The notes beneath the pieces are model-generated. The model was given only the letters and a program-made list of their open reading frames with translations. It was not told the DNA's origin and ran no database searches. A stretch of 64,000 nt of DNA, taken from NCBI GenBank assembly GCA_963663865.1, contig OY760686.1, forward strand, positions 544,001 to 608,000, written 5' to 3'. The stretch is from Spirochaetota bacterium (GTDB lineage Bacteria; Spirochaetota; UBA4802; UBA5550). Shown here one piece after another: positions 10,174 through 63,559 of the stretch; position 1 is the stretch's first letter; each line of letters starts with the position of its first letter. Both the position numbers and the translations under genes were made by a program.

Positions 10174-10870
10174 GGCACTGCGTTTAATCGGGACGGTTTA
10201 GACTGTCCCCTGCCATTGCGCTGTGCGGAGCGCTTTTTTGGCAGGGAGCCTGCCGTCTATTTTCACACTGGGAGTGTGAGATTCTTTTTTTCGTCACTTT
10301 CGTCCGGGCGAAAGTGGTCGACGGCTATTTCGACCTCCTGTCGGCCGTCGACACTTAAGCATCCTGCTTTTCGACCAATGTCTTTTGGCGCCGGAAAGGC
10401 TTGGCTTTTGTTGTTACTCGACTGTTGCAGCGCCGTTATCATCATCCTGATGAAACGGCGCCCGGGCGATTTACTTCCGTGAAAATCGCACTTATTGAAT
10501 TGTTGAGGCAGTAAGCCTATAGTTTCATAATTCTGCCACTGTGTTCCATCCCGCCGATGGGACATCCATGTCCTAAGAATTAGTCACTGTGAATTATTCC
10601 AAAGTGAGATAGCTTTATTATGTCAGGCTCCTTCGGAGCCGGAAAGCGCAGCGTCCTGCTGCGCTTGAGTGATTATGCATTTTGTCATATTACGTTATCA
10701 TATTGATATAACCGTCATTAGGTTCTGGTACCCGGTAGAGCCGGCCAATTTGGACGGCTCTACCTCACCGTGAAACGCAGCATCCCGCGGATGACAAGAT
10801 GAATCGGGAAGCCCAAGGCCGGAACATTGGCGGCAGGTTTTTTTAACCACTTTTTTTATGAAAGAAAAGT
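10174..10870. repeat. Mosaic palindromic repeat cluster, copy 1
   Basis: Modules shared with 12687-12860 and 18634-19346. Segment 10555-10675 matches 18864-18984 at 114/121 nt by manual count. Confidence 0.85.
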
Positions 10871-11540: not shown

Positions 11541-12635
11541 ATGAAAAAAGCTGTGTTTTTAATAATAATCTTTCACATATTTTTGGGTTGCGACGGCGGA
11601 CTTTTTGATAATAAGGATGACCGACCTGAAGATATTTCACTGATTGATGGCATGGTAATTGCCGGCAAATTTGTTCCTAAACCTCAATACCCCCAGTTAA
11701 ATGGGGTTACTGCTTATAGTTATAACAACATGTGGACTTTTTCTTATGACGATGAATTCCGTACAAATCCGCGCGTTCTTTGTGCTTCAGCAAATGGTGA
11801 AGATATATATCTTGGCGGGGGCTATGCCAGTGGGCAGAATGGATACTGGAAAAACGGGAACTTTATTGAAATAGATAATGTCCAGTTTGGATTTGTTCGT
11901 GATATTCTTTTCAGCAATACTGTAATGTTCGCTGTGGCAGATGTAGAAAACTGGTATACTCAAATTATACGCAATGCAGGGGTATACCTTTTTTCCTTTC
12001 AGTCCGGGAATGACGAGCTATTAGAAATTAAGAGATGTGGAGAATTGACCGATGCAGGGTGTATTGTATTAAATGGGAAAGACATTCTGGTTGGGGGAAG
12101 GATTGCGGGAGCCCCGGCATACTGGGACAAAGATGAAATCCATAATATGAGCATTACTGACAGAGAGTCAATTTCAGGAATGATTTTGACAATGGCGGTT
12201 TATGAGGATGATGTATATGCCGGGGGCATAGTACTGGATCATGACGACAATCCTCTTTGCGGTTATTGGAAGAATTCTGAATGGGTGCCGCTTGAAACTC
12301 CCGTGGGAGGATATGTACAATCTATTTCTGTTAATGATGATGGCCTGTTCGTTGGGATAAAATACGATTCAAATAAAAAGTCTGGCTATTGGTTTAACGA
12401 TATCTGGTATGATTTGGATGATCCTTATGGAAATTATTTCAGTATGACTTCTATGGCAGTTGATGGCACCGATGTATATGTTTCAGGTTATTCAGCTATA
12501 TGGGACGAAAGCGTTTCAGAAGCCAATGAATGCAGAGGAGGATATTTCAAAAATAGTGAATGGAATGAATTGAGCAGTGAAGTTGCAGGTGAGGAGTATG
12601 AATACTTTTATCCTGCGGAAATAATTGTGAAGTAA
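11541..12635 (+). CDS. Lipoprotein with beta-propeller-like repeats
   Basis: Lipobox FLG-C; repeated D(I/V)Y(L/A/V)xG...GYWKN units. Confidence 0.75.
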   Translation: MKKAVFLIIIFHIFLGCDGGLFDNKDDRPEDISLIDGMVIAGKFVPKPQYPQLNGVTAYSYNNMWTFSYDDEFRTNPRVLCASANGEDIYLGGGYASGQNGYWKNGNFIEIDNVQFGFVRDILFSNTVMFAVADVENWYTQIIRNAGVYLFSFQSGNDELLEIKRCGELTDAGCIVLNGKDILVGGRIAGAPAYWDKDEIHNMSITDRESISGMILTMAVYEDDVYAGGIVLDHDDNPLCGYWKNSEWVPLETPVGGYVQSISVNDDGLFVGIKYDSNKKSGYWFNDIWYDLDDPYGNYFSMTSMAVDGTDVYVSGYSAIWDESVSEANECRGGYFKNSEWNELSSEVAGEEYEYFYPAEIIVK

Positions 12636-12686
12636 ATTCATTTTGCCACTTTTTTGTAGCGCCCAAAAACACGATTGGTTTTTTAC

Positions 12687-12860
12687 GGCAGGGAGCCTGC
12701 ATCCATTTTCACACTGAGAGCGTGGCGCTGCGTTTAATCGGGACGGTCTCGACCGTTCCCCTGTCACTGTTTTCTGTGCAGAGCGCACGGGCATTTCTTT
12801 TGCCACTGCGCTGCGTGACTCGCTTTTCTTTTAGCAGTGAGCCTGTTGTCTATTTTTACG
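12687..12860. repeat. Mosaic repeat cluster, copy 2 (partial)
   Basis: GGCAGGGAGCCTGC..TTTTCACACTG (12687) and CTGCGTTTAATCGGGACGGT modules also occur in copy 1 (10240 and 10174). Confidence 0.8.
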
Positions 12861-13056
12861 CCTCGCTTGAAAAACCTCAGCCATTGCGAGAAAACATAGT
12901 CTTGAATAGTATCGTGTTCTCGTCATTTAGTATTATTGGCTGCTTTGACGCTTACAGTGTAACTGTTTAATTTTAATCTGAGAATACCCTCCCTGTCTTT
13001 CTTCTTATCCCTCGAAAATTATTCAAACGACAAATAATTTATGTAATTTCTTCTAC

Positions 13057-13099
13057 CCTTGTCGGGAAGGACGACAGCCCGGGAAGGGTGTGATATTTT
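13057..13099 (+). promoter_or_regulatory. Putative AraC-activated promoter (box type 1)
   Basis: CCTTGTCGGGAAGGACGACA is 18/20 identical to the box at 29859-29878(-). ACGACA-N17-TATTTT geometry with TG extension. Confidence 0.65.
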
Positions 13100-13201
13100 T
13101 CCTTAAAGTTTAGGTTTTGTGTGAACAGGTGTAAACCCTTTCTGTGGCGCGGTTCGTCGTGATTGATTTTGGCTTATAATTAAGTCGTTGAGGGAGGTTA
13201 T

Positions 13202-14377
13202 ATGCAATCAGCTAATCATCAGATTGATGTCTTTCCGGATGTAGTAGTAAACCCGGCGGGTGCGGTTGTTATTAATAAAGACAACATTGAAACTTCAATA
13301 AGATTTATAGCTAATGATGGAAAAATAAAAGTAATCTCAAAAGTCTTCCCGCGTCTAACAGCTATTACAAAAGAGATCAAAAAATGGCTTAATAATAACA
13401 TGGTAAAAGATGTTGCTGTTCAAGGAGGCGGATGTAGCTGGAAGATGATCTGGAATAGTTTTGAAGATTCATTTAACCTTCATCTTACTCACTTCAATGA
13501 TCAAGTGTCCATGCCAGAAACTCCTCACCAAAAAAAAAGCGAATCTGAAAAAATATCCGAGCTACTTCAGTATGGCTTATTAAAAATAAAATTTATCCCT
13601 GACAGACTTACAAGAGAGTTGCGGGATCTTACAAGAATGCGGGAGGGCTTGATTGAAAGAAAATCAGTGCTGGGATGCAGAATTCAGTCAATTCTGGAAG
13701 AAGTCGGTATAACACCTGCGTCTTTAAGGAGCTATAATAATAGACCAATTTATAGAAAGGCTGGTTGGCATAGTGTAGTTGAAAATCTGATAGAAATTTG
13801 TGATTCCAGTCCTGTTTCAGAGCACAGTAAATACATTTTGGATATTCTTGCATCTGATTATAAGAAGGCTGATAAGAGTATTATGCGGCTTTCAGCCAGG
13901 ATAGCTCTTATGAGTGGAAGATATGAAAAACAGATTTCAGGACTTATGCAAATACCAGGCCTCTCAAGAAGGTACGCAGAGAGGATATTGGCCGAGACAG
14001 GAACTGATTACGATCGTTTTGATTCGCATAAAGCTCTGTTGGCGTGGGGTGGTATGTTTCCCCCACCTGCTCATGGTGATGGGGAAAGAACTATGGGGAA
14101 AAACGGAAAGGAATGGTTTAAACGTGCAATTGCCGATTCCGCCATTGCTGCCGCAAATGCTGCAAACTCAACACTTGCAAGAAAGTATACCATGCTTGAA
14201 TCTGAATATGGTATCAGAAAAGCTATGTCAGTTATTAAGCAGGACGTGGTCTATCTGATTTACAATATTATCAGGGAAGGAAAGAGCTATAGTGAATTAA
14301 GAGACTTTATCGAATTTAGTGAAGATACACATACATTATCAAAACCATATAAAATATGGGATGCCTCAATACCATGA
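13202..14377 (+). CDS. IS110-family transposase-derived protein, catalytic residues apparently lost
   Basis: IS110 scaffold motifs (ELLQYGLL..FIP..RELRDLTR, IPGL...ILAETG.D..RF, LLAWGG) are present, but the GLD, ES/TG, KTD..D and SAG positions are substituted. ORF intact; GGAGG RBS. Confidence 0.8.
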   Translation: MQSANHQIDVFPDVVVNPAGAVVINKDNIETSIRFIANDGKIKVISKVFPRLTAITKEIKKWLNNNMVKDVAVQGGGCSWKMIWNSFEDSFNLHLTHFNDQVSMPETPHQKKSESEKISELLQYGLLKIKFIPDRLTRELRDLTRMREGLIERKSVLGCRIQSILEEVGITPASLRSYNNRPIYRKAGWHSVVENLIEICDSSPVSEHSKYILDILASDYKKADKSIMRLSARIALMSGRYEKQISGLMQIPGLSRRYAERILAETGTDYDRFDSHKALLAWGGMFPPPAHGDGERTMGKNGKEWFKRAIADSAIAAANAANSTLARKYTMLESEYGIRKAMSVIKQDVVYLIYNIIREGKSYSELRDFIEFSEDTHTLSKPYKIWDASIP

Positions 14378-14521
14378 TATCATGAATATAAATTCAGTTT
14401 CAGACAGCGCATTGAGATACAAATTCCCTATGTTCGAGGGTATTTTTCTTAATTTAAACAACAGCGGAGTCTGTGCTGATTATATATATTTTTATTAAAC
14501 TATTTTAGGAGGATTTTTTTG

Positions 14522-16693
14522 ATGAAAAAAATTCTGGTACTTTTAAGTCTCTCCTGCGCCTTTTTCTTTGGCTGCGGGGATGACGGGGACGATTCGAAGA
14601 AAGTGGATGATGACACGTGTGTAAGTGTCTACTGTGATGAATCGGGATTACTCGAACAGCCAGCGATTGGAGTCAGAGACGGAAGCGGGAAAACGGTTAT
14701 TACGGTCGATGGTTACCAGTTTAAGGATTCTAATGGTAACGGAACTCTGGATGCCTACGAGGATTGGAGGCTTTCCGTCTCGGAGAGGGCAGAAGACTTG
14801 GTTGCAAGAATGACGGCTAATGAAAAGGCAGGATTTATAAATGCTCCCAGCGCGAGTGGAATGACAACAACAACAGGATCTCTTAAGAACGATGATGGTA
14901 CCTGGATCGAAACAAATTCAGGATATACATCTATTACGACTCTTTTTAGAAGATTCGGAATGATCACTTTGTCATCCTCGGATCAACCGGCACGGATTGC
15001 AACTTATAATAATAGTTTAAATGAAATCTGTGAAGGAGTATTGCGGGAGGATGGTTCAACTGGACTTGGAATTCCATTTGTCACCTGCACCAATCCGACT
15101 CATGGAACCAACTCTAACTCAACAAGTTTAATTTCTGCCTGGCCGTATGCAATTGGTCTTGGCGCTATTACAGATTCTTCTGTTATTGAAAAATATGCTT
15201 CAACAGTGAGGGCTGAGTTGACGGCGCTGGGAATCCGTTCTTATTACGGACCGCTCGCAGATGTTGCAACCGAGCCAAGGTGGGGCCGACAGAATGAAAC
15301 TTTTGGATCAAGCCCTGAAAGGGTGGCATCTTTTTCAACGATTGTGGTAAGAGCCCTTCAGGGAGGGAATTCTCTCAAGCCGGGAGGCATTGTATGCGCG
15401 ATCAAGCATTTCCCTGGGCATGGAGCTCAGTGGCGGGGTTATGACTCACATTACAAAATGGGTCAATATGTTGTCAACCCAGGAGACAACTTCGATATGC
15501 ATATTGCTCCGTTTGAGAAGGTATTCAGAGAAGTTGCTCCGGCTGCATGTATGCCGTGTTACGCAATTTACCAGGATCAGCCTTTTGAGAAGGTATCTCC
15601 AGGTTACAACGCAGAAATTATGAATGATCTGGGACGCGATCAACTTGGTTTTACTGGTTATTACACTTCAGACTGGGGGATTTTCGGAATGGGTGGAAGC
15701 CTTACTGCACCTCCTAGTACCGCAACTTTTGCAGCATGGGGTGTTGAGGGGTTGAGTTTAGAAGAAAAATTAGGCAAAGCCATGGATGCCGGAATGGATC
15801 AGCTTGGTGGCCATGGAAGTATAATGGATATAATAAGTGCGTTAAGTTACGGTAATCTTTCCGAAGAGACTCTGGACAGGGCGTGTGTCAATATCCTGAA
15901 AGGATATTTCACAATGGGTCTTTTTGAGAATCCCTATGTTGATGTGGATGCCGCTACGGATATTTGTAATACTGCAGAAAGTCAGGCTGCAGGACTGGAT
16001 GCAATGCACAAATCTATTGTTATGGTAAAAAACAGCGCTACGTTGCCGGCAGCATCGGGGATCAGTATTTATTATGACGGTACTGTAGATGGATCGGATG
16101 CAACCCAGGCTACATTTATCAATGAAACGTATGGTGCAACAGTTGAAACTGATATCACACAGGCTGACATTGCTGTAATAAGGATAAACGGACCCACACA
16201 TAGCAGGTACTATCCGAATGAGCCTACATTTTTGGGTTATCTGGGACCAAGCAGTCGTTCTCTGCAGTTTTTAGATGAAGAGCCAGACGTGCAGTATGGT
16301 GGTTCATACACTGTAGATTATACTGATGCTCTTGGTAACGTCCATTATGGAGTTATGTTGTCAACAAACATTGACCAGTATGAGAAAGTTATGAACGCAA
16401 AAAAAGAGATTATTGACGCTGGAGCTTCCACCAAACTTGTCGTGCTTGTTAATGCAGACAGGCCTCTGGTCATGAAAGAGTTTATAGATTACGTGGATGC
16501 CGCTTTTCTGACATTTGGTGCCAGCGATCAGGCTGTTCTGGATATTCTATTCTCAAAAGAGGGCCTTAAGCCTACTGGGGTTCTCCCTTTTGAAATACCC
16601 TCTTCTGATGATCAGGTTGAAGCACAGCTCGAAGACCTTCGAGATGATACATCTAATCCTCTATATAAGGCAGGTTATTCTCTGACTTATTAA
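14522..16693 (+). CDS. GH3 beta-glycosidase lipoprotein
   Basis: Lipobox FFG-C, FKDSNGNGTLDAYEDWRL, EPRWGR, KHFPGHG, nucleophile SDW, GLFENPY. Confidence 0.92.
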   Translation: MKKILVLLSLSCAFFFGCGDDGDDSKKVDDDTCVSVYCDESGLLEQPAIGVRDGSGKTVITVDGYQFKDSNGNGTLDAYEDWRLSVSERAEDLVARMTANEKAGFINAPSASGMTTTTGSLKNDDGTWIETNSGYTSITTLFRRFGMITLSSSDQPARIATYNNSLNEICEGVLREDGSTGLGIPFVTCTNPTHGTNSNSTSLISAWPYAIGLGAITDSSVIEKYASTVRAELTALGIRSYYGPLADVATEPRWGRQNETFGSSPERVASFSTIVVRALQGGNSLKPGGIVCAIKHFPGHGAQWRGYDSHYKMGQYVVNPGDNFDMHIAPFEKVFREVAPAACMPCYAIYQDQPFEKVSPGYNAEIMNDLGRDQLGFTGYYTSDWGIFGMGGSLTAPPSTATFAAWGVEGLSLEEKLGKAMDAGMDQLGGHGSIMDIISALSYGNLSEETLDRACVNILKGYFTMGLFENPYVDVDAATDICNTAESQAAGLDAMHKSIVMVKNSATLPAASGISIYYDGTVDGSDATQATFINETYGATVETDITQADIAVIRINGPTHSRYYPNEPTFLGYLGPSSRSLQFLDEEPDVQYGGSYTVDYTDALGNVHYGVMLSTNIDQYEKVMNAKKEIIDAGASTKLVVLVNADRPLVMKEFIDYVDAAFLTFGASDQAVLDILFSKEGLKPTGVLPFEIPSSDDQVEAQLEDLRDDTSNPLYKAGYSLTY

Positions 16694-16717
16694 GAAAGAC
16701 TATTCTGAAGTATTCCT

Positions 16718-16749
16718 GCTCCCCGGCATTTCCTGTCGGGGAGTGTTTT
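16718..16749 (+). terminator. Intrinsic terminator
   Basis: CTCCCCGGCA-N5-TGTCGGGGAG-TGTTTT after the GH3 stop codon. Confidence 0.7.
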
Positions 16750-16913
16750 AGAAAATATCTGAAACTGCCAGCCAGCAGTTGGCAGTTGTGGATGAGGTAA
16801 GTCTGAGTTTCTGTGTCGATATATTTGCTTTGGGGTTGAATCTGTCATACTTTCTTGATGCCATCGGGTTTCTGAAAAAACTAAAATTCAGCGTTGTGGA
16901 TAAAGTCGAAATA

Positions 16914-18098
16914 ATGATTAAGTATAATATAATTACGATAATAGCAATACTCGGATTTGGTCAGGGAGTATTTCTTGCAATTGTTCTGGCAACATCAAAG
17001 CAGAACCGTCAGTCCAACAGGATACTATCAATTTTTATGTTGATACAAGCCGTTGTTTTAGCTTCAAACTGTGTTTTTTCGCCGGATGTACAGTTGAACC
17101 TGCCGCATCTTTTACGAATCGACTGGCCGCTCTCAATGGCTTTTGGGCCTATTTTTTATTTTTATTATTCCTCCATTCTTGAAAAAAATTTCAAGTTTAA
17201 AGCTTACCATATTCTTCTTTTTATTCCATTTTTTTTATCAGTGCTGTTTCTAATGCCTCTATTTGTGCTGGATGGAGCCGCTAAATCTGATATCCTGCAT
17301 GCATCCTTTAATGGGTTGCCTTTGCATGCCTCGTATTCCAGGAATTTCAAGTATGTAGTTCCGGCGCTTCAGATGCAGATGATTATTTATTGTTGGATAT
17401 GTATTTGCAGGATAATAAAATACAGAAAAGAACTTTATGATTATAAATCAAATATAAGTAAAGAGAGTCTTTCATGGCTTTTATACCTTTCCATAATAAT
17501 GATTGTAACATACATACTCAATTTTATTGGTTTTATAGTAACGATTTATTTTCTTGATAAGTCTCTGAGTTACGTTTATGTCCATGATAGCATTGGTGCC
17601 ATGATAGCCCGTAATATAGCCCCTCTTGAGTTTGCTTTGCTCACATACATGATTGGTTATAAAGCCTTAAAACAGAGTGAACTATCAATAATCAGAGAAT
17701 TCCCGAAGACGCAGAGGAAATATGAGAAGTCATCCTTAACCGATGAAGAGAGCAAATCTATTATGAGTGAACTTTCCACCATCATGACAGAGGAAAAGCC
17801 CTATATGGATTCAAATCTTACAATTATTTCACTCGCGGAAAGACTATCAATTAGCCGTCATCATCTGTCTCAGGTTATAAACAGGGAAATGGGTCAGAAT
17901 TTTTATGAATTTATTAATACCTATCGTATTTATGAAATACAATCACGACTTCTGATTGATATGGGTGGGAGTGAAAATATTCTTGACGTTGCCTTTAAAG
18001 TAGGGTTTGACTCCAAGTCGGCATTCTATAAATACTTCAGGAATATTATGGGTATAACACCCAAACAATATATTGCAGGTAACAAGTTGAACAACTAA
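16914..18098 (+). CDS. Membrane-anchored AraC-family transcriptional regulator
   Basis: About 7 TM helices, then the AraC HTH domain (HHLSQVIN, NFYEFINTYRI, GFDSKSAFY). Start at ATG 16914 is likely. Confidence 0.9.
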   Translation: MIKYNIITIIAILGFGQGVFLAIVLATSKQNRQSNRILSIFMLIQAVVLASNCVFSPDVQLNLPHLLRIDWPLSMAFGPIFYFYYSSILEKNFKFKAYHILLFIPFFLSVLFLMPLFVLDGAAKSDILHASFNGLPLHASYSRNFKYVVPALQMQMIIYCWICICRIIKYRKELYDYKSNISKESLSWLLYLSIIMIVTYILNFIGFIVTIYFLDKSLSYVYVHDSIGAMIARNIAPLEFALLTYMIGYKALKQSELSIIREFPKTQRKYEKSSLTDEESKSIMSELSTIMTEEKPYMDSNLTIISLAERLSISRHHLSQVINREMGQNFYEFINTYRIYEIQSRLLIDMGGSENILDVAFKVGFDSKSAFYKYFRNIMGITPKQYIAGNKLNN

Positions 18099-18149
18099 AC
18101 ATCATAAGCATAATTGCTGATCAAAAGTTATAAAAAAAACCCACAGCAG

Positions 18150-18259
18150 GGGATTTTAAAAGTGTTATCGTTTCTTTCAGCTTTCCTATATCCTTGGACC
18201 TGATCGGGTCAGTTTTTTACGTCTTTTTTGAATTGATTCGACCGGATAATTGTCAGCAT
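18150..18259 (-). pseudogene. yafQ: YafQ/RelE-type toxin remnant
   Basis: ATG overlaps the antitoxin stop (TAATG). MLTIIRSNQFKKDVK is followed by frameshifted pieces LTRSG and KDIGKLKETITLL, then truncation. Confidence 0.7.
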
Positions 18260-18522
18260 TAGATTCCAAGATCGTCGAAAAGATCTTCAACTTTTTCGAA
18301 TTTATTCGAGTTCCTCTTTTTCCTGGAATCATCGATAGCCCTTAAAGTAATCTGATTTGGAAGCTTTACGCTAAAGGGTATTCCCTGGTTTGCAACAATT
18401 TGATGATAATACATATTTATTGCTGTAGAGTGATTGAGACCCAGCTTATCAAGGATCTTTCCAACCTCATCCTTGAGTTCTTTCTCTGTTCTGACGGATA
18501 ACGTTGTATTTGCCTGTGACAT
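18259..18522 (-). CDS. dinJ: RelB/DinJ-family antitoxin
   Basis: SVRTEKELK...LGLNHSTAINMY...GIPF...PNQIT...VEDLFDDL. Confidence 0.88.
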   Translation of the reverse strand: MSQANTTLSVRTEKELKDEVGKILDKLGLNHSTAINMYYHQIVANQGIPFSVKLPNQITLRAIDDSRKKRNSNKFEKVEDLFDDLGI

Positions 18523-18555
18523 GGTATTGCCTTTTTATGTAAAAGTATTTCTTAT

Positions 18556-18584
18556 AATGTAACACATAATAATTACATTGTCAA
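18556..18584 (-). promoter_or_regulatory. TA promoter with overlapping inverted-repeat operator
   Basis: Minus strand TTGACA-N17-TACATT; inverted repeat AATGTAA (18556-62) / TTACATT (18573-79). Confidence 0.65.
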
Positions 18585-18633
18585 TGCATTATATGTTATT
18601 TGTATTTATGTTGTGACATGTTGTCAATGACAA

Positions 18634-19346
18634 GGCGTCTGCCGTCTTTTTTCACGCTGAGAGCGTGGCACCTCTTTTGCCGCTTTTTGACCGGTTTTTT
18701 TGCCGTAGGCTTTAACTCGCTCAGCTGTGCGACTCGTTTTTCTCCTGGCAGGGAGCCTGCCGGCCATTTTCACACTGGGAGTGTGAGACCCTTTTCCGTT
18801 ACTTTCTTTTTTCGTGCCAAAAAAGAAAGTAACCAAAGAAAAAGGGCATGCCTGCGCGGCATGCGATGGGACATCCATGTCCTAAGAATTAGCCACTATG
18901 AATTATTTCAAAGAGTGATAGCTTTATTATGTCAGACTCCTTCGGAGCCGGAATGCGCAGCGTCCTGCTGCGCTTGAGTGATTAAATTATTTATTTCATG
19001 AAGTAACTGATTGTTTTATTCCGCCATTGTGTTTTGCCGACTCATCGCAGTCATACGCGGAAGAAGGGCGAGAATGTCTGAGCCTGCGTAGCAGGCGAGT
19101 TTCGCAGCCCCCGCGGATGACAAGAGGAGGAGGGAAGCCGAAGGCCGGAACATTGGCGGCAGATTTCTTTTGACCACTTTTCTTATAAAAGAAAAGTGGT
19201 GAGAAAACCCTGATGAAACGGCACCCGGACGATTTGCTTCCATGCAAATCGCACTGGTTGAGTCGTTGTTGTAGGGTGCATCCAATGTCTTATCCCGACA
19301 TTTTTTTGCCGACGGCTATTTCGATTTCCTTGCCGCTGTCGGCACT
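18634..19346. repeat. Mosaic palindromic repeat cluster, copy 3
   Basis: Shares modules with copy 1 in a different order; includes hairpin GTTACTTTCTTTTT..AAAAAGAAAGTAAC. Confidence 0.85.
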
Positions 19347-19381
19347 GTGACATCGTGTCAGGCGCCCCTCTTCAAATCTCC

Positions 19382-19409
19382 TTGACACTTAACTGTGTTC
19401 TGATAGTAT
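19382..19409 (+). promoter_or_regulatory. Putative sigma70 promoter
   Basis: TTGACA-N16-TAGTAT with extended TG. Confidence 0.55.
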
Positions 19410-19442
19410 CTCTTTTAGCATTAAGGATACAGGGAGAAAACA

Positions 19443-19706
19443 TTGGGCGTTAACGAACTGAGAGCACTCATCTTTAAAGCCGTTGAGCAGCTGAATATGT
19501 ATGAGCTTTCGCCGACCGGGCAGAAGCTTGTAGCGCATTACTTCAACAGTTCCAGTGCGGAGACTACCTACCAGAGGGCGCTTGACGCAATTGAACGTTA
19601 CATCCCGGAGAGGCTCCCTTCTCCCGAAAGGCCCGCCTCCGCGCGGATTGAAGCTTTGCTTGCCGAACTCAAACGGGAAGCTGACAATATTGATTCTGAA
19701 GGATAG
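19443..19706 (+). CDS. Small hypothetical protein
   Basis: TTG start with GGGAG RBS; stop codon 1 nt before the next ATG. Confidence 0.6.
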   Translation: MGVNELRALIFKAVEQLNMYELSPTGQKLVAHYFNSSSAETTYQRALDAIERYIPERLPSPERPASARIEALLAELKREADNIDSEG

Positions 19707-26177: not shown

Positions 26178-27335
26178 CTATTGCACAATCGTTTTAAGAT
26201 ATTCGCCCGGTGCGGTCCCCATTATTTTTTTGAAGGCCGAGTAGAAGGCCGACTTTGAATCAAAGCCGGATTTGAAGGCTATTGACAGGATGTTTGTCTG
26301 GTCTCCTGATGATGTTTTAAGCATCTCGATAGCGGCCCTGATTCTGTAGCTGTTGACAAAAAGGTAGAAGTTGCTTCCTGTCTTGATGTTTATTGCCTGT
26401 GATAAGTGATGCTTGCTCACGTTAAGCTTCTCTGCAAGGGCCTCAATCGTAAGGTCAGGGTCCATGAAGAGCTTTTCCTCTTCCATTTTGCTGCAGGTCT
26501 GGTTGAAAAGAGAGTCAACTTTGTCATCGTTAAGCCCGGCCTTTCTGTATTTAACACTTTTTGAACTCAGCCGGCTGTCTGCTTCTGTAAGGGCTGACTC
26601 GTTCTGTTTAAGGCTTTTATATCCTATAATGTAGAGAATTACGGTAAAACCGACAACAGGGATGAAAGCGGTATCTTTCCAAGGAATCTTAATAAAACCG
26701 GCAACTGTAAGAACAACTCCGAAGAAGTTTACAAGATAGTTAGGAATCATGAGCACTGACATCAGCAGGAGCCAGTTAAGCGACTTGTTCTCCAGAGATG
26801 AATGCGATTGAAGCAGGGCCTTTCTGTACTTCAGTATGCGCCGTATTGAGATTGTGATGTATATCATCATCTGAATCTGTATCCCGGGGACGCTCAGCAT
26901 TGAGCTTGCGGGAAGAGAATTACCGTCAGGCAGAACAGCTTCTCCGAATATTCTCGCTTTGATAATCAGTTCTTTCTCCTGTCCTGAAAGCATGTAGATG
27001 CCGAGATTGTCTAAAAAAGACAGCAGGGCGGTCGAAAAAAGCAGCAGGTGAACTGGTCTTATGCGAAATGTCCTGTCAATCATTGCTCTTATATAAAAGT
27101 AGAAGAGCGGCCCAAGGGCCATTGAAAGCGGCCAGTCAACGAGAAAGAGGTGAGGGAAAGGCAGCCTTATGCTGTATGTGACAACTGAGTTTGCCGCGAT
27201 TACTATGGCCTGTATGAACATGAATGCCGCGAGGATGCGGTTCGCGTATCTGTTCTTCCTGGAGTTGGCAAGAAGGAAGAAGAAAAAGAAACCCTGTGTT
27301 ATCCCGAGAAGCGCTATTGCTGAAGTTATGTTCAA
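26178..27335 (-). CDS. Membrane-anchored AraC-family regulator
   Basis: TM helices; PHLFLVDWPLSMALGP, HHLSQAIN, GFDSKSAFY. Close paralog of 16914..18098. Confidence 0.9.
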   Translation of the reverse strand: MNITSAIALLGITQGFFFFFLLANSRKNRYANRILAAFMFIQAIVIAANSVVTYSIRLPFPHLFLVDWPLSMALGPLFYFYIRAMIDRTFRIRPVHLLLFSTALLSFLDNLGIYMLSGQEKELIIKARIFGEAVLPDGNSLPASSMLSVPGIQIQMMIYITISIRRILKYRKALLQSHSSLENKSLNWLLLMSVLMIPNYLVNFFGVVLTVAGFIKIPWKDTAFIPVVGFTVILYIIGYKSLKQNESALTEADSRLSSKSVKYRKAGLNDDKVDSLFNQTCSKMEEEKLFMDPDLTIEALAEKLNVSKHHLSQAINIKTGSNFYLFVNSYRIRAAIEMLKTSSGDQTNILSIAFKSGFDSKSAFYSAFKKIMGTAPGEYLKTIVQ

Positions 27336-27517: not shown

Positions 27518-29724
27518 TTACTGATATGTCAAACCGAAACCTGCCTCAAAGGCCGGATTCAGCGTGTCATCTGCTACGTCCTCAAGCTGGGCTTCCACTT
27601 CAGTGTCAGAAGAGGGCAGCTCAAATGGCAGTTTGCCTGATGGTTTCAGCCCCTCGTAGGCGAAGATCATGTCAAGAACAGCCTCATCAGTTGCTCCGAA
27701 AGACAGGAGAAGCGCGTCAACCTTATCAACATATTCTTTGACAACAACAGGCCTGTCAGCGTTGACGATTACTACGAGTTTGGTCACTGCTGAGGCGTCA
27801 TCAATCGCCTTTCTCGCGCTGAGGACCTTTTCAAGCTGACCGATATTGCCGGCTATTTCAACGTCTTCGTACAGGACACCAAGAGGATCGGTATAATCCG
27901 CGGGAGTAATGCCGTACTCTGTATCCGGAGCTTCATCGATGTACTGAAGCGACCTGCTGCTCGGACCGACATAGCCCATAAAGGCAGGTTCAGTCGGATA
28001 GAATATTGAATAGGAAGGTCCGTTAATACGGATAACAGCGATGTCGGCCTGTGTAATGTCAGTAACGACTTCCGCTTCGTACCCGCCTTCGATGAAGTCG
28101 GCAAAGACGCTATCAGTACCGCTGGAATTCCCTTCGTAGTAAATCTTTGAAGAGGCAGAGGCAGGCAGGGCTGAGCTGTTTTTCAGCAGGACCATTGATT
28201 TGTGCATGGCGTCAAGACCCGCTGCTTTGTTTTCGTCACTGTTGCAAATCGAAGCTGCAGCTTCCACGTCGGTATAGGGGTTTTCAAACATACCGATCGT
28301 GAAATATGATCTGAGGATATTACTGCATGCCCTGTCGAGGTCGTCCTCGGTCATAAAGCCTTCAGTGATCGCGCCTTTGATGTCATCAAGTGTTCCGTGT
28401 CCGCCAAGCTGATCCATGCCCGCTTTGATTGCCTTCCCTATTTTCGCTTCGGGAGAGAGATCCTCTACTCCCCAGGAAGCGTACGAGCCGGGGATAATCA
28501 TCCCATAACCGCTGTTATATATTCCAAAGAGTCCCCAGTCGGAGGTGTAAAAGCCTTCGAATCCGAGCTCATCGCGCCCGAGGGTTGTGAGTATCTCTTC
28601 ATTGAATCCCGCGGCTACCTGCTCGAAGTCCTGGTCCTTGTAAATAGAATAGCAGGGCATTGAACCGGCAGCATTTGCTTCGGCAAATGCCTTCTGGAAT
28701 GGATAGACGTGCTCATCAAAGTTGTCTCCGGGATTTACGACATATTGGCCTAATGCGTAGTGCGAATCGTATCCTTTGACCTGAGCACCGTGGCCGGGGA
28801 AATGCTTTACCGTACAGATGATGCCGCCGGGCTGAAGAGAGTCGCCGCCCTGGAATCCCTTGATGAGTTCTACAATGTGTTCAGCTATGGTTTCAGAGTC
28901 TGATCCCATGGTTTCATTTATACGCTGCCATCTTGGTTCTGTAGCGAGGTCGGCAACGGGTCCGAAAAGGCACCTGATACCGAGGGCTTTGAACTCCGCT
29001 TTTGCTATAGACGCGAAGTCCTTTGTTACTTCGACGTCATTCACCGCACCCAGGCCGATCGCGAAAGGCCACTGGGATATGTTTGATGTGGCGTTGTTGT
29101 TAGTGCCGTGTACGGGGTTTGAGCTGACAACAAAGGGAATGGCGAGCGAGCTTGCCTCGCAGAGCTTATTCAGGTTGTTGATATAAGCAGCAGTTGCTTG
29201 AGGAAGAGCCGGCGAACTTAGCATTCCGAACCTTCTATGTAAGTCTGTAATATCAGTAATATCTGTGCTGTCTTCTGCTATTGAGCCGTCAGGAGTTTTT
29301 ACACCTGCGATTGAGGGCGCGTTGATAAAGCCTGCTCTTTCGTCAAGAGACATCTTGCTGACAAGGTGTCCGCTGCTCTCTCGCTGACGCTGAGTCTCCA
29401 GTCCTCGTAGTCGTCAAGTGCCCCGTTACCGTTTAGGTCCTTAAATGTGTAGGTAACGGCGGTTCCTTCCGAGTCTGTTACGTCAACAGTCAGTTTGTTT
29501 TTCGCTACCCCTTCTCCGATGACGATTTCGGGTTGAGCAAATACACCGTTAACACAGTACACGCTTTCACCCACGGTACATGCTGTTCCGTCTGGATAGG
29601 TAATCTTTTCCTCTTTGTCGTCGTCATCATCGCCGCAGGCGGTGAACAGCATCGACAGGGACAGGAAGCAGAAGAGCATCATTGATAGTGCCCTGAATGA
29701 GACTGAAACGTTTTTTTGCATCAT
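27518..29724 (-). pseudogene. GH3 beta-glycosidase lipoprotein with a frameshift near 29366
   Basis: The N-terminal ORF (lipobox FTA-C, FKDLNGNG..YEDWRLSVSERAAD) joins 27518..29353 if 2 extra nt (GAC-AC-CTT) are removed. The paralog reads ERAEDLVARM. KHFPGHG and SDW are intact. Confidence 0.85.
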
Positions 29725-29835
29725 AAGCCTCCAAAAAAATAGTGAGTTGTAGGGCTGGGAACGGTACGGACTCAAATCTCCTGAAAATTACGCTATCGGC
29801 AGGCAGACGGATCCCGGACTGACACAGCCTGTCGC

Positions 29836-59833: not shown

Positions 59834-60106
59834 ATCGTTGTGAATTCATGACTTAATCAGGTGTTAATCTTTAATGTATCTATTGATGCAAGGTCTTTTT
59901 CAATCAAGCTGCAGGCACAGGTGCTCTCGACACCTGTCTGATATAGCGTTGGATTGTAAGGTATAAACTGTAAAGAACAAAGTTATAGCATATAAATAAT
60001 ATATGGGGTTGTGAGCATGACCTGTTTTATAAAATAGAACCGGCATCACTTTGTCCCAATATATATTTATATAGATATCAACATATTTTTAGGAGGGTCA
60101 TTGATA

Positions 60107-62254
60107 ATGATCAAAAAAGTAATTTCAGTTGTTACGCTGATTACAGCTGTCTGTGCATTTATGGGATGCGACGGTGATGGTGGATCGGAGAAAAAAGAGA
60201 CCAGTGATGAATGTGTCAGTATCTATTGTAAAGACGGAGAACTGGTGCAGCCTGTTATAAAGGTTGCTTCAGAACTTGAATCAGGGGTTCAGGTAAGCCT
60301 TTCAGCCGACTTGATGAAATCAAAAACTGTTATTGAGGTTGATGGATGGAGATTTAAGGACTCTAATGGTAATGGAGTTCTTGATGATTATGAAGATTGG
60401 CGCCTTTCCGCCAAGGAAAGAGCAACCGCTCTGGTCAATATGGAGGACTTCACCCTTGAACAAAAAACTGCATTGCTTGGTATAGGCGGCGGTTCAATGA
60501 GTGATGATGGCTCAGTGACTGCGGAAAATACACAGGGAATAGAAATACAGGAAGGTGTCAGGTTTGCTCTCTTGAGGATGATGGGCGGTTTCGGAACAGC
60601 AAAGTCTCCTGAGAATGTTGCTCTGTGGATGAATAACACACAGGCGTATTGTGAAAGCTCGTCACACGGACTCTGCTTTGTAATGTGGTGCGACCCGGAG
60701 AGCTATCAGGGAGGAGAGTCCGACACATGGACCAGAAACTTCCCAAGTCCAATGGGAATGGTTGCTACAAATGATCCTAATGTTGCACGTCAATACGCGG
60801 ATTGTGTTAGAGAAGAATATATGGCTGTCGGGATGAGGGGACAGTATGGCCCACTGGCGGACTGTGCAACCGAACCGAGGTGGACACGCTGGGAAACAGC
60901 TTTTGGTGACGCTCCAGAGGTTACCGCTGAATACACAAGACAGGTAATAAAAGGCTTTCAGAATGACGGGGATACAGCGAATGGTATAGCTGCGATTATG
61001 AAGCATTTTCCGGGACACGGTCCGCAGCAGGATGGAGAAGATCCTCATCAGAGCATGATGGGCGGAACAGATTACAGGGGAGAATTCCTTGTTTATCCAG
61101 GCGGACAATTTGAGAGCCATCTGATTCCATTTAAAGCGGCTATTGAAGAAGGAGCTATGGGTTGTATGCCATGTTATGCCGCGACGATTGGAATTGGTGA
61201 TCCAGAGCAAGTATCTTCGTGTTACAGTACATTTCTCATTAATGATCTGCTTCGAGATGAGCTCGGATTTGATGGCATGATAACTGCAGATTGGGGTGCA
61301 ACTGGTAATGACGCTTTTGGAATGAAGGGGCTGCCAATGAGCTACTATTGTGCAAAGTTCCTTGAAGCAGGTTCAGACCAGCTGGACAATGATGGTGCTC
61401 TGATGAAAACTGCGTACGAAGAAGGATTCATATCAATGGATCAGATTAACGTATCGGCTATCAGATGTGTAGAATTCATTATGAAGTTGGGATTGATGGA
61501 GAATCCGTATGTTGATGTTACTGCGGCAGTGTCAAAGCTTAGAACAGAAAAAAATGTCACTAACGCTAAAAATGCTCAGAAAAAATCGATTGTGCTTCTG
61601 AAAAATGAAACAAAAAATGACAGCGTTTCTTTGCCATTCTATAATGACGGAGATACTTATTCAAAAACACTGCAGGACCAGAATGGAGACGGACTTGTTA
61701 AGATATGGTATAATGGTACAGATCCAACAAGTACAGTTCTTCAGGATACTCAATATGTAGAAAACAGCGGTGTAACAAACATTTCCTTCACGGCTGATCT
61801 TTCTGAAGCTGATTTCGCAGTAGCGCGTTTCCAATCTGTTAACAACACAAAGAACGGTATACAGGATTTAAGATTTACTTCAATGCCTTCAAAACTTCAG
61901 TCGGCGATTGAAGCTCAGGCAACAAACACAAATTTAAAGATTATTGCTGTTATGGAAATGGGCGATGCTTCAATAATAGCCGGAGGAGAGGGAGGAATTG
62001 ACGTTTTAACCCCCTGCGATGCTTTCCTCGTTGATTTCAGCGCAAGCGATACTGAGTTGCTGGAAGTGTTGTTCAAGATAGATTTTGAAGATTTCACAAG
62101 CTCTCTTCCAACTGAGATTTGTTCATCGCAGGCGGCAGCTGAGGAGCAATTTGAAGATGTAGGATCAGATTCTTTTGATCCGACCTTCGCCAGAGGATTC
62201 GGAAAAACATATTCCGGAACGCAATCAAGCGGCGGCGGTGGATGGCCATTTTAA
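60107..62254 (+). CDS. GH3 beta-glycosidase lipoprotein
   Basis: Lipobox FMG-C, FKDSNGNGVLDDYEDWRL, EPRWTR, KHFPGHG, TADW. Confidence 0.92.
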   Translation: MIKKVISVVTLITAVCAFMGCDGDGGSEKKETSDECVSIYCKDGELVQPVIKVASELESGVQVSLSADLMKSKTVIEVDGWRFKDSNGNGVLDDYEDWRLSAKERATALVNMEDFTLEQKTALLGIGGGSMSDDGSVTAENTQGIEIQEGVRFALLRMMGGFGTAKSPENVALWMNNTQAYCESSSHGLCFVMWCDPESYQGGESDTWTRNFPSPMGMVATNDPNVARQYADCVREEYMAVGMRGQYGPLADCATEPRWTRWETAFGDAPEVTAEYTRQVIKGFQNDGDTANGIAAIMKHFPGHGPQQDGEDPHQSMMGGTDYRGEFLVYPGGQFESHLIPFKAAIEEGAMGCMPCYAATIGIGDPEQVSSCYSTFLINDLLRDELGFDGMITADWGATGNDAFGMKGLPMSYYCAKFLEAGSDQLDNDGALMKTAYEEGFISMDQINVSAIRCVEFIMKLGLMENPYVDVTAAVSKLRTEKNVTNAKNAQKKSIVLLKNETKNDSVSLPFYNDGDTYSKTLQDQNGDGLVKIWYNGTDPTSTVLQDTQYVENSGVTNISFTADLSEADFAVARFQSVNNTKNGIQDLRFTSMPSKLQSAIEAQATNTNLKIIAVMEMGDASIIAGGEGGIDVLTPCDAFLVDFSASDTELLEVLFKIDFEDFTSSLPTEICSSQAAAEEQFEDVGSDSFDPTFARGFGKTYSGTQSSGGGGWPF

Positions 62255-62446: not shown

Positions 62447-63559
62447 TTATGGACAATTGATTAGATTTTTCTTGTACTCAGTAGGTGAAACTCCTTTGTA
62501 CCTTCTGAACGCCCGGTTAAAAGAGGCCTTAGAGTTAAATCCTGAATTTAATGCAATGTGTAAAAAATTGGTTTTGTCCGGATTCTTCATGTTGCGGATT
62601 ACATCGTCAATTCTTAATCTATTGATATAATCTGTAAAACGAATTCCAAATTCTGAATTTATTACCTGTGAAAGAGTGTTTTTGTGAACACCAATGTAGT
62701 TTGCTATCGTTGATATCTTGATCTCTGAATCAAGATATAGTTTATTATTTTTTACTGTGTTGATAAATGTCTTTAATATAATGTCCTTCTTGTCTAATGG
62801 TATCACCTTCATATAGTTCGATTTGCTTCTGTGTGTTGTCTGAGAAATAGAATTTATTATTGAATGATATGAAAGGAAGAGTATTATAATAATTGTTTCA
62901 AATAACTCAAAAAATGATAAATTACTCAAAAATGATTGATTTCCTTCTATAATTGATTCGAAAGACATGTCGATAAAATGAGACACTATAAAGAAAAAAG
63001 AGTATAAAATAATTGTTCTTGCCAAAAGATAATTTATAATCTTAGAAAACCACTTCAGGTTTCTGTCTGGGCTTTTCTTTGTCAAAGGGAAAATAAATAT
63101 TTTAAGAACTCCTAAATATACAATCAGATGGATTGATGTAAGAATAGCATTTATCCGGCCAAGCTGGTCCCAAAAAAAACCATAGTTTGTGTAGAGATAT
63201 AAGTGTGCTGATGTGCTGAATAGAATTGCAATCACAGGAGGCAGATGTGGGTATATACTACCTTTATTAAGTGCTACCCCGAAGATTGATAAACCATAAA
63301 GATATATTAGGATATTCACCAGTATTGCACTGGTCATATCTGGTATTGCTAAAGTTAAAAAGAGATATTTCTGATCATAGCCTATACCTCCAAAAAAGAA
63401 TGTTCTAGACATCCAAAAAATAAAACTGTTAAAGGCTTTTATTGCAATGAAATAAATAAGAATAAGATTAGAACGGTTTTTATTTTTTGATAAAATAAAT
63501 ATTGTTAATACGCTCTGCAGTAGAAGAAAAAAAAGCGTAGAAATGATTAAATATAGCAT
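62447..63559 (-). CDS. Membrane-anchored AraC-family regulator
   Basis: TM helices; NTLSQVIN, FTDYINRLRI, GFNSKASFNRAF. Confidence 0.9.
   Translation of the reverse strand: MLYLIISTLFFLLLQSVLTIFILSKNKNRSNLILIYFIAIKAFNSFIFWMSRTFFFGGIGYDQKYLFLTLAIPDMTSAILVNILIYLYGLSIFGVALNKGSIYPHLPPVIAILFSTSAHLYLYTNYGFFWDQLGRINAILTSIHLIVYLGVLKIFIFPLTKKSPDRNLKWFSKIINYLLARTIILYSFFFIVSHFIDMSFESIIEGNQSFLSNLSFFELFETIIIILFLSYHSIINSISQTTHRSKSNYMKVIPLDKKDIILKTFINTVKNNKLYLDSEIKISTIANYIGVHKNTLSQVINSEFGIRFTDYINRLRIDDVIRNMKNPDKTNFLHIALNSGFNSKASFNRAFRRYKGVSPTEYKKNLINCP

Follow-up and report, generated by a model that had tools for sequence, protein, structure and literature searches.

The stretch of DNA analyzed here, a window of 64,000 nucleotides (nt) at positions 544001-608000 of the single 3.16-Mb contig of a Spirochaetota bacterium (OY760686.1), contains a gene derived from the transposases of IS110 insertion sequences. 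The gene, named L001, encodes a protein of 391 amino acids in which the catalytic residues of IS110 recombinases are missing, and it is one of nine such paralogues in the genome (L001-L009, collectively IS110L). As described in an earlier note made from the sequence alone, the open reading frame (ORF) of L001 is intact, and genes for a GH3 glycoside hydrolase and an AraC-family regulator come after it on the same strand (Table 1). The start codon of L001 has GGAGG 7 nt upstream, and the AraC protein combines a hydrophobic multi-helix N-terminal part with HTH_18 at the C-terminus.

Table 1. Features of the L001 cassette and of related loci in the window (window positions).
Feature	Position	Strand	Remarks
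IS110L gene, paralogue L001	13202..14377	+	Open ORF, 391 amino acids; catalytically dead (V/Q/K/E for DEDD, G for Ser)
Spacer between L001 and GH3, 141 nt	14378..14518	+	Carries GH3 ribosome-binding context TTTTAGGAGGA, common to 3/9 IS110L loci
GH3 glycoside hydrolase lipoprotein gene	14519..16693	+	PF00933 4.4e-31, PF01915 3.4e-8; likely start ATG 14522
AraC-family regulator gene, membrane type	16779..18098	+	PF12833 1.5e-18; likely start ATG 16914
Palindromic box CCTTGTCGG-N-AGGACGACAG	13057..13077	+	125-145 nt 5' of L001 ATG; sequence CCTTGTCGGGAAGGACGACAG
Second box copy	29878-29859	-	18/20 matches; 137 nt 5' of sister-cassette GH3 ATG
GH3 gene of sister cassette	27518..29775	-	57-59% identical to L001 GH3; no IS110L before it
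AraC-type regulator gene of sister cassette	26178..27335	-	42% identical
Second IS110L gene in window, paralogue L003	55864..57003	+	379 amino acids; 30% identical; also catalytically dead
GH3 gene 3' of L003	57426..59546	+	
Second GH3 gene, L003 locus	60101..62254	+	
AraC-type regulator gene, L003 locus	62447..63559	-	Convergent
REP-like dispersed repeat copy	12680..12861	.	With copies at 18600-18800 flanks the L001 cassette

The catalytic sites were compared in a MAFFT alignment of 49 active-type rows, which are the closest catalytically complete relatives, and 11 rows of the dead family. At the first aspartate, GLDVH in the active relatives reads AVVIN in L001 (D to V), and MEST at the glutamate reads VQGG (E to Q). 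The third and fourth acidic sites change from KTD..D to HQK..E (D to K and D to E), and NESAG at the serine becomes AHGDG (S to G). These are the same substitutions that the earlier note had proposed from a hand alignment; it had also considered that the catalytic residues might appear once properly aligned, and they are absent. Among the active-type rows D1, E and D3 are each conserved in 49/49 and D4 in 48/49. In the dead family, D1 is conserved in 0/11 rows and E in 1/11, i.e., in P0040, a paralogue found only in a second assembly, while L004 has D at the E site. Every member of the dead family lacks the serine and at least part of DEDD. From a wider collection of 182 homologues, 141 carry DEDD plus S or T and the remainder are mostly truncated; at least three of the five catalytic sites are substituted only in the 10 proteins of this lineage. 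The residues that are invariant in IS110L are also conserved in the active relatives, and no newly conserved polar constellation appears among the dead proteins.

The IS110L proteins keep the whole IS110 architecture, with a RuvC-like fold, a long linker/coiled-coil helix and a helix-hairpin-helix (HhH) Tnp domain. L001 matches PF02371 above the cut-off (2.6e-8), PF01548 covers only residues 116-168, the last helix (20.2 bits against a cut-off of 29), and the NCBIfam IS110 model gives 70 bits against a cut-off of 140. Eight of the nine paralogues match PF02371 and seven match PF01548. The AlphaFold2 model of L001, made from a 60-row alignment (predicted local distance difference test score, pLDDT, 87.9; predicted template-modeling score 0.85), begins with an N-terminal domain of the order beta-beta-beta-alpha-beta-alpha-beta, continues with helices of 33 and 42 residues and ends in a helical C-domain. 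Its top Foldseek matches are ISCro4 and IS621 (E 2e-12, template-modeling score 0.64-0.68 over 357-367 columns), which bears out the IS110 scaffold that the earlier note had recognized. Lower matches are to TIGR-TasR (E 2e-5), TasH (the TasR and TasH matches range from 2e-5 to 7e-4) and Nop5 (E 6.5e-4). A profile of the nine paralogues matches the IS621 Tnp domain (E 2.7e-5) and also, faintly, the HhH proteins RuvA, Pol lambda and uS13 (E 0.4-2.3). A phmmer search of L001 alone against the PDB sequences gave nothing relevant, and PADLOC gave no match for the four paralogues examined.

Conservation within the family is uneven. The highest mean pairwise identity among the nine proteins is found in the HhH of the Tnp domain (41% at residues 249-290, motif IPGxxRRxAExIxAExG..F......W.G), and the linker helix at residues 131-168 reaches 36% (motif RELRDLTRxRE). 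The lowest values are those of the serine loop (16%) and the middle region (13%); about 20 residues are missing from the middle region of L001 compared with the active relatives. The HhH motif is typical of DNA binding, and seven of the nine proteins have an isoelectric point of at least 8.8. Together with the faint matches to HhH proteins, the basic character and the conserved HhH and linker helix suggest that IS110L proteins may have retained nucleic-acid binding. At the serine site, a short beta hairpin is modeled at residues 304-309 of the active relative P0003 (pLDDT 94.4), while the L001 model is coil only, with a pLDDT of 55 and no strand predicted. This is a weak indication that the hairpin is lost in the dead protein, because loop confidence is low in both models.

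All nine paralogues are open, with lengths of 334-413 amino acids, and they are 19-50% identical to each other. A six-frame profile search of the genome gave exactly nine full-length matches and nothing further below E 0.6. Therefore, the genome contains no IS110 fragments and no active IS110, and near-identical IS110L copies are also absent from it. The IS110L proteins no longer behave as transposons. Outside the genome, their nearest homologues are IS110 transposases with all catalytic residues; these are 25-30% identical over 86-91% of the length and have both Pfam domains. When 1.84 billion representative proteins were searched with a profile, the IS110L paralogues and their orthologues scored 282-507 bits and the next match at most 238 bits. 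The lower matches that were checked, 49 of them in the alignment and the others in the wider collection of homologues, all keep those catalytic residues that their sequences include. Judged by these sequences, the dead family is confined to this lineage among the proteins searched. Loci of relatives from genome contigs (53) and metagenome contigs (the best 80 of 246) are all at most 33% identical, and those inspected are catalytically complete. A quick maximum-likelihood tree built with IQ-TREE places the dead rows, which have long branches, together on one side of a single branch, and the support for this branch (Shimodaira-Hasegawa-like approximate likelihood-ratio test, SH-aLRT, 85) argues for a single origin of the dead family.

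The second assembly contains six intact orthologues, with identities of 96.9, 97.2, 97.6, 98.1, 90.0 and 79.3%, in addition to the extra paralogue P0040. The 79% pair consists of L008 (genome C1:42886-44019) and P0039, in which the differences lie mainly in the N-terminal half; identities in four other pairs are 97-98%.

At the level of paralogues, there is strong evidence from sequence divergence that the ORFs are under purifying selection. L001 and its closest paralogue L002 differ by 0.395 non-synonymous (dN) and 1.66 synonymous (dS) substitutions per site, i.e., a dN/dS ratio (omega) of 0.24, with a bootstrap range of 0.13-0.34 and a maximum of 0.36 in 300 replicates. Nonsense changes make up 6.5% of the non-synonymous single-base changes in the L001 ORF; on the path between L001 and L002, 23.6 nonsense events are expected unfiltered and 0 are observed (P 6e-11). 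The earlier note would have taken a dN/dS ratio near 1 or frequent stops as evidence against domestication; the L001/L002 pair does not have the former, and the nine ORFs are free of the latter. For the other genes of the L001/L002 cassette, GH3 has a dN of 0.10, a dS of 0.75 and an omega of 0.14, and AraC has a dN of 0.11, a dS of 0.43 and an omega of 0.25. The unequal dS across the genes of this duplicated cassette (1.66, 0.75 and 0.43) is a hint that the GH3/AraC copies underwent gene conversion or that the genes differ in age.

Contigs of a related strain covering 12959-14098 differ from the window at 18 positions. The 897 coding nt (13202-14098) contain 10 single-nucleotide differences (1.1%), five of them non-synonymous and five synonymous, and a 9-nt in-frame insertion that is the same as the SGM insertion of the protein P0183. 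The 243 nt upstream contain 8 differences and a 1-nt indel (3.3%), compared to 2.6% at synonymous sites. Contig joints were also seen at L001: in run X8 there are skips of the gene or a part of it at 12838-14506 (depth 2.5, side 25) and 13357-14059 and a back-jump from 14769 to 13031, and X4 contigs break at 14769/14770. Such joints have low depth or short sides, lie at a contig break point and look no different from what cross-mapping between paralogues or branch points of a de Bruijn graph would give; no conclusion is drawn from them.

Every IS110L gene adjoins and is co-oriented with a GH3 lipoprotein gene (9/9), and a gene for a membrane regulator of the AraC type is present at 7/9 loci. 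Thus, the linkage to GH3, the absence of which the earlier note had listed as an argument against its reading, is conserved within this genome. The order is IS110L, GH3 and AraC for L001, L002 and L005, and at L009 a 941-aa ORF is placed between GH3 and AraC. L003 is followed by two GH3 genes and the convergent AraC gene, and L004 by GH3, with no AraC among the ORFs of at least 150 amino acids up to approximately 5 kb 3' of its GH3. L006 and L007 share one locus, in which L006 is followed by an IS3-type transposase insertion, GH3, L007 and AraC, and at L008 the order is GH3, L008 and AraC. The inserted IS3/rve-type transposase ORF lies at genome C1:60915-61772. IS110L thus occupies one of two slots, either 5' of GH3 or between GH3 and AraC, and L007 and L008, which fill the second slot, group as sisters in the tree (support 99). 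Apart from the shared L006/L007 locus, there is mostly one IS110L per cassette of GH3 with or without a membrane AraC. By tblastn, GH3 genes are found at no fewer than 22 places in the genome. In a tree of 22 GH3 members, the eight IS110L-linked genes are dispersed through the main clade; therefore, either the linkage is old with many losses or the association arose repeatedly. Agreement that would point to joint duplication of IS110L and GH3 is limited, in the tree, to L001 pairing with L002 and L007 grouping with L008. In a set of 24 relatives, no GH3 matched the cassette GH3 at E <=1e-80 (0/24).

A palindromic box of about 25 nt, composed of two overlapping inverted repeats, precedes the L001 cassette. 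The earlier note had seen it again in front of a GH3 gene at 29.9 kb, and that copy holds up, with 18/20 matches. It belongs to a sister cassette in the same genome (26178-29878, minus strand) in which the box is followed by GH3 and AraC without an IS110L gene. An empty insertion site in close relatives, which the earlier note had named as an argument against its reading, is approached only by this cassette of the same genome. A third copy is placed approximately 140 nt 5' of L002, and a fourth match of 19 nt within a coding sequence is probably due to chance. Because the box is shared with a cassette lacking IS110L, it would mark the regulated start of the cassette and place IS110L inside the transcription unit. 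The box itself probably acts as an operator or promoter element of the cassette.

In the sister cassette, GH3 is read as two overlapping ORFs in different frames, 29299-29775 (158 amino acids) and 27518-29353 (611 amino acids), and this split is due to a frameshift or a sequencing error. The REP-like repeat family has copies at 12680-12861, 18600-19285 and 10174-10278 and more than 50 blastn matches genome-wide; the L001 cassette has directly oriented copies on both sides, and none were found at the other IS110L loci. The genome also holds three FlaA genes, which identify this gut bacterium as a spirochaete.

Since 2024, IS110 recombinases have become prominent as RNA-guided "bridge" editors. 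The dead loci were searched for a guide RNA. In the active relatives, the 240 nt 5' of the ORF are conserved (102 pairs with matches) and the downstream flank is not (6 pairs). The upstream RNA is structured, with compensatory changes at 18 of 29 predicted pairs, as expected for a bridge RNA in the left end, and it presumably serves as such in this IS110 subgroup. In the active loci L035-L167 it has motifs such as CATGAAAATGGG and GAGCACGCAGAGCAGATTG approximately 240 nt 5' of each ORF. An nhmmer profile of this RNA recovered 13 of 15 held-out active loci (E 5e-45 to 4e-14), while its best match over the whole genome had an E of 2.5. A covariance model of the RNA core recovered 14 of 15 (22.6-112 bits), including L011 from the same bacterial family at 22.6 bits; the upstream flank of the missed control, L098, is only 43 nt long. 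With filters off, the best match of this model over the 91 kb made up by the window and the dead loci was 8.2 bits (E 0.11), on the wrong strand and within a coding sequence.

The flanks of the nine dead loci were also compared with each other. The upstream flanks have no common k-mer above random expectation and only L001 and L002 share the box, and the downstream flanks have nothing in common except the GH3 ribosome-binding context. Rfam gave no match in the window at gathering thresholds. Rfam 15 also gave none in eight active IS110 loci at E <=0.1 and thus has no bridge-RNA model that could be used for this subgroup. Since the searches were negative with working positive controls and the flanks are unshared, the ancestral guide is gone and has no conserved replacement beside the genes. 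On this evidence, the dead loci appear to have lost the bridge-RNA gene of their active relatives, although a guide that has diverged beyond recognition or is encoded in trans could still exist. The suggestion in the earlier note that L001 is possibly RNA-guided is thus left without support, as both the profile and the covariance model were negative, no non-coding element is shared and the divergence between strains upstream of L001 is close to that at synonymous sites.

IS110L can be compared to several known systems. The bridge recombinases IS621 and ISCro4 (PDB 8wt6, 8wt9, 9t56) have the same three-part architecture and fold, whereas in IS110L all five catalytic positions are lost or scattered and a bridge-RNA gene is not detectable. 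Unlike IS110 insertion sequences, IS110L has no near-identical copies and is fixed beside GH3 genes. The functional features that define an IS110 transposase (DEDD, serine, bridge RNA and insertion sequence-like behavior) are all missing. The Piv/MooV invertases are likewise IS110-type proteins fixed in the chromosome and serving a host locus. Piv retains DEDD and acts on inverted repeats, whereas in IS110L these residues are gone and no inverted repeats were seen flanking the L001 gene or its promoter region. TldR is a dead TnpB that acts as an RNA-guided transcription factor. It resembles IS110L, as does dCas12f-sigmaE, by concept only, being a protein of transposon origin that has lost catalysis and resides in host loci. 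Both differ from IS110L in belonging to another protein superfamily and in having an adjacent guide RNA with matching genomic targets, while no guide was found at IS110L. The targets of dCas12f-sigmaE include nutrient-uptake operons (PMC12259090).

Nop5 has been proposed to be a catalytically inert IS110 relative without the serine beta-sheet (10.1101/2024.06.21.599552). As described there, Nop5/Nop56/58 and Prp31 have an inactivated RuvC-like fold, a coiled coil and a helical C-domain and are without the serine beta-sheet, in which they resemble IS110L. Nop5 and TIGR-Tas are also weak structural matches to L001. Compared with Nop5, true IS110 transposases are much nearer to IS110L. A tandem guide array was absent from a repeat scan of 12000-19500, the only region scanned. 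Full-text searches, which did not extend to supplements and subscription papers, gave no account of a bacterial dead-IS110 family or of one linked to GH3 or carbohydrate cassettes, and in Bertels et al., 2017 (PMC5581495), IS110 serves only as a typical selfish comparator. The exapted, catalytically dead IS110 family is real and apparently undescribed.

Domestication is well supported because the catalytic residues are lost, fragments and near-identical copies are absent, omega is 0.24 between L001 and L002, and the linkage to GH3 is found at 9/9 loci with nine intact paralogues. This agrees with the view of the earlier note that L001 is domesticated and not a decaying transposon, and we consider it highly probable that the IS110L proteins are maintained for a function other than transposition. 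How they would function is less certain. We slightly favor an exapted IS110 family with a role in its own cassette through non-catalytic nucleic-acid binding. The ORFs are held open by purifying selection, mostly one for each glycoside-utilization cassette of GH3 with or without a membrane AraC, and would be transcribed together with the cassette. The retained activity would be nucleic-acid binding via the conserved surface of the HhH and linker helix, and IS110L may act in cis on the expression or maintenance of its own cassette as a fast-evolving, cassette-specific factor.

Several observations weigh against a maintained role in the cassette. By exact look-ups, the dead family occurs on contigs of three assemblies only, which represent one species-level lineage, and no dead member occurs in 40 relatives, 24 from the same family and 16 from the same order; the IS110 matches there are ordinary elements, e.g., L011 or the seven identical copies in genome G011. 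For L002 and L007, the cluster look-up gave no member of at least 90% identity from the second assembly, and the L005 orthologue of the third assembly is in two pieces of 227 and 58 amino acids. Thus, single copies are dispensable or the assemblies are imperfect. Selection is only weakly indicated at strain level, because neutrality is not rejected when all 12 amino-acid changes of P0183 are weighed against 6 known synonymous changes (P 0.16); the related strain gives a pN/pS of 0.27 (one-sided P 0.043) from small counts. Non-synonymous change is approximately four times faster in IS110L than in its GH3. The GC content is 0.30-0.40 in seven of the nine genes, compared to 0.459 for the genome, and only L001 has a clear Shine-Dalgarno sequence. 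Neighboring GH3 genes have a GC content of 0.43-0.48, and the AT-richness is absent from L004 (0.53) and L009 (0.49). Additionally, 14 of the 22 GH3 genes in the tree are without IS110L, including that of the sister cassette with the same box, which implies that this cassette type does not strictly need IS110L. The identity matrices of IS110L and the adjoining GH3 are uncorrelated (Mantel r -0.01 with P 0.46 overall, and r -0.22 with P 0.67 for the copies in the upstream slot), in a test that has low power because the IS110L matrix is nearly flat (0.16-0.31) except for L001/L002.

Much of this would be expected if the genes were functionless relics, i.e., an old IS110 copied along with GH3 cassettes, in which the dead ORFs persist by chance or as promoter or 5' sequence of GH3. 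The narrow taxonomic range, the rapid change, the AT-rich composition, the weak ribosome-binding sites, the split orthologue, the presence/absence differences between assemblies and the sister cassettes without IS110L all fit such relics. However, nine of nine ORFs of 334-413 codons remain open at 19-50% identity without fragments, the bootstrap maximum of omega is 0.36, about 24 expected nonsense events were not seen, the indels are in frame, and the HhH and linker motifs are conserved in all nine, so we find this explanation unlikely. Alternatively, IS110L might form a DNA-rearrangement system, as non-catalytic subunits or through unconventional chemistry, that promotes duplication, conversion or shuffling of GH3 cassettes. 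This would account for the 22 or more GH3 paralogues, the dispersion of IS110L-linked GH3 genes over the tree, the use of two different slots, the mismatch between GH3 and IS110L histories and the uneven dS within the duplicated cassette. Yet no member has the full DEDD or the serine, the invariant residues are those of active relatives with no new polar constellation, inverted repeats are missing around the L001 gene and promoter region, and the genome has no active IS110 to work in trans, which makes such a system quite improbable.

An RNA-guided regulator, in which the dead recombinase keeps a bridge-RNA-like guide and finds DNA at the GH3 cassette as TldR or dCas12f-sigmaE does, has the scaffold of an RNA-guided enzyme in its favor, as well as structural neighbors in TIGR-Tas (E 2e-5 to 7e-4) and Nop5 (E 6.5e-4). 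Quick divergence with mostly one copy per cassette would also suit a specificity factor, and there are precedents both for dead RNA-guided proteins in nutrient-uptake loci (PMC12259090) and, as has been proposed, for Nop5 as a dead IS110-like scaffold (10.1101/2024.06.21.599552). This regulator is nevertheless as improbable as the rearrangement system, as the upstream RNA of the active relatives is undetected in the dead loci and genome by both nhmmer and the covariance model, the flanks of the nine loci share only the L001/L002 box and the ribosome-binding context, Rfam is negative in the window, and the upstream 243 nt differ by 3.3% between strains versus 2.6% at synonymous sites. A bacterial exaptation resembling that of Nop5, where the inert, fast-diverging IS110L carried by each GH3/AraC cassette is a programmable specificity subunit that recognizes the DNA or transcript of its own cassette, possibly via a guide unlike bridge RNA, and gates expression with the AraC sensor, is a speculative idea to which we give about the same small weight as to the relics. 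Finally, IS110L could be a protein-protein adaptor without a nucleic-acid role, for instance a cytoplasmic partner of the membrane AraC sensor, since an AraC-type gene is found at 7/9 loci and L007 and L008 lie directly 5' of AraC. The best conservation is, however, in the HhH, which is typically DNA-binding, the proteins are basic, and L004 has no AraC within the range given above, and we therefore regard the adaptor as the least likely of these explanations. A predicted complex of IS110L with the C-terminal 145 residues of AraC scored 0.00, which gives no verdict and is not evidence either way.

Both TnpB and Cas12f are known to have exapted, catalytically dead derivatives, and Nop5 of archaea and eukaryotes has been proposed as a further case. 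If a regulatory or targeting role of IS110L is true, it would be a new case of bacterial transposase domestication, and IS110L would represent a natural "binding-only" scaffold of a bridge recombinase. The nine paralogues in one genome form a comparative series for the role of this fold after the loss of catalysis and of the bridge RNA.

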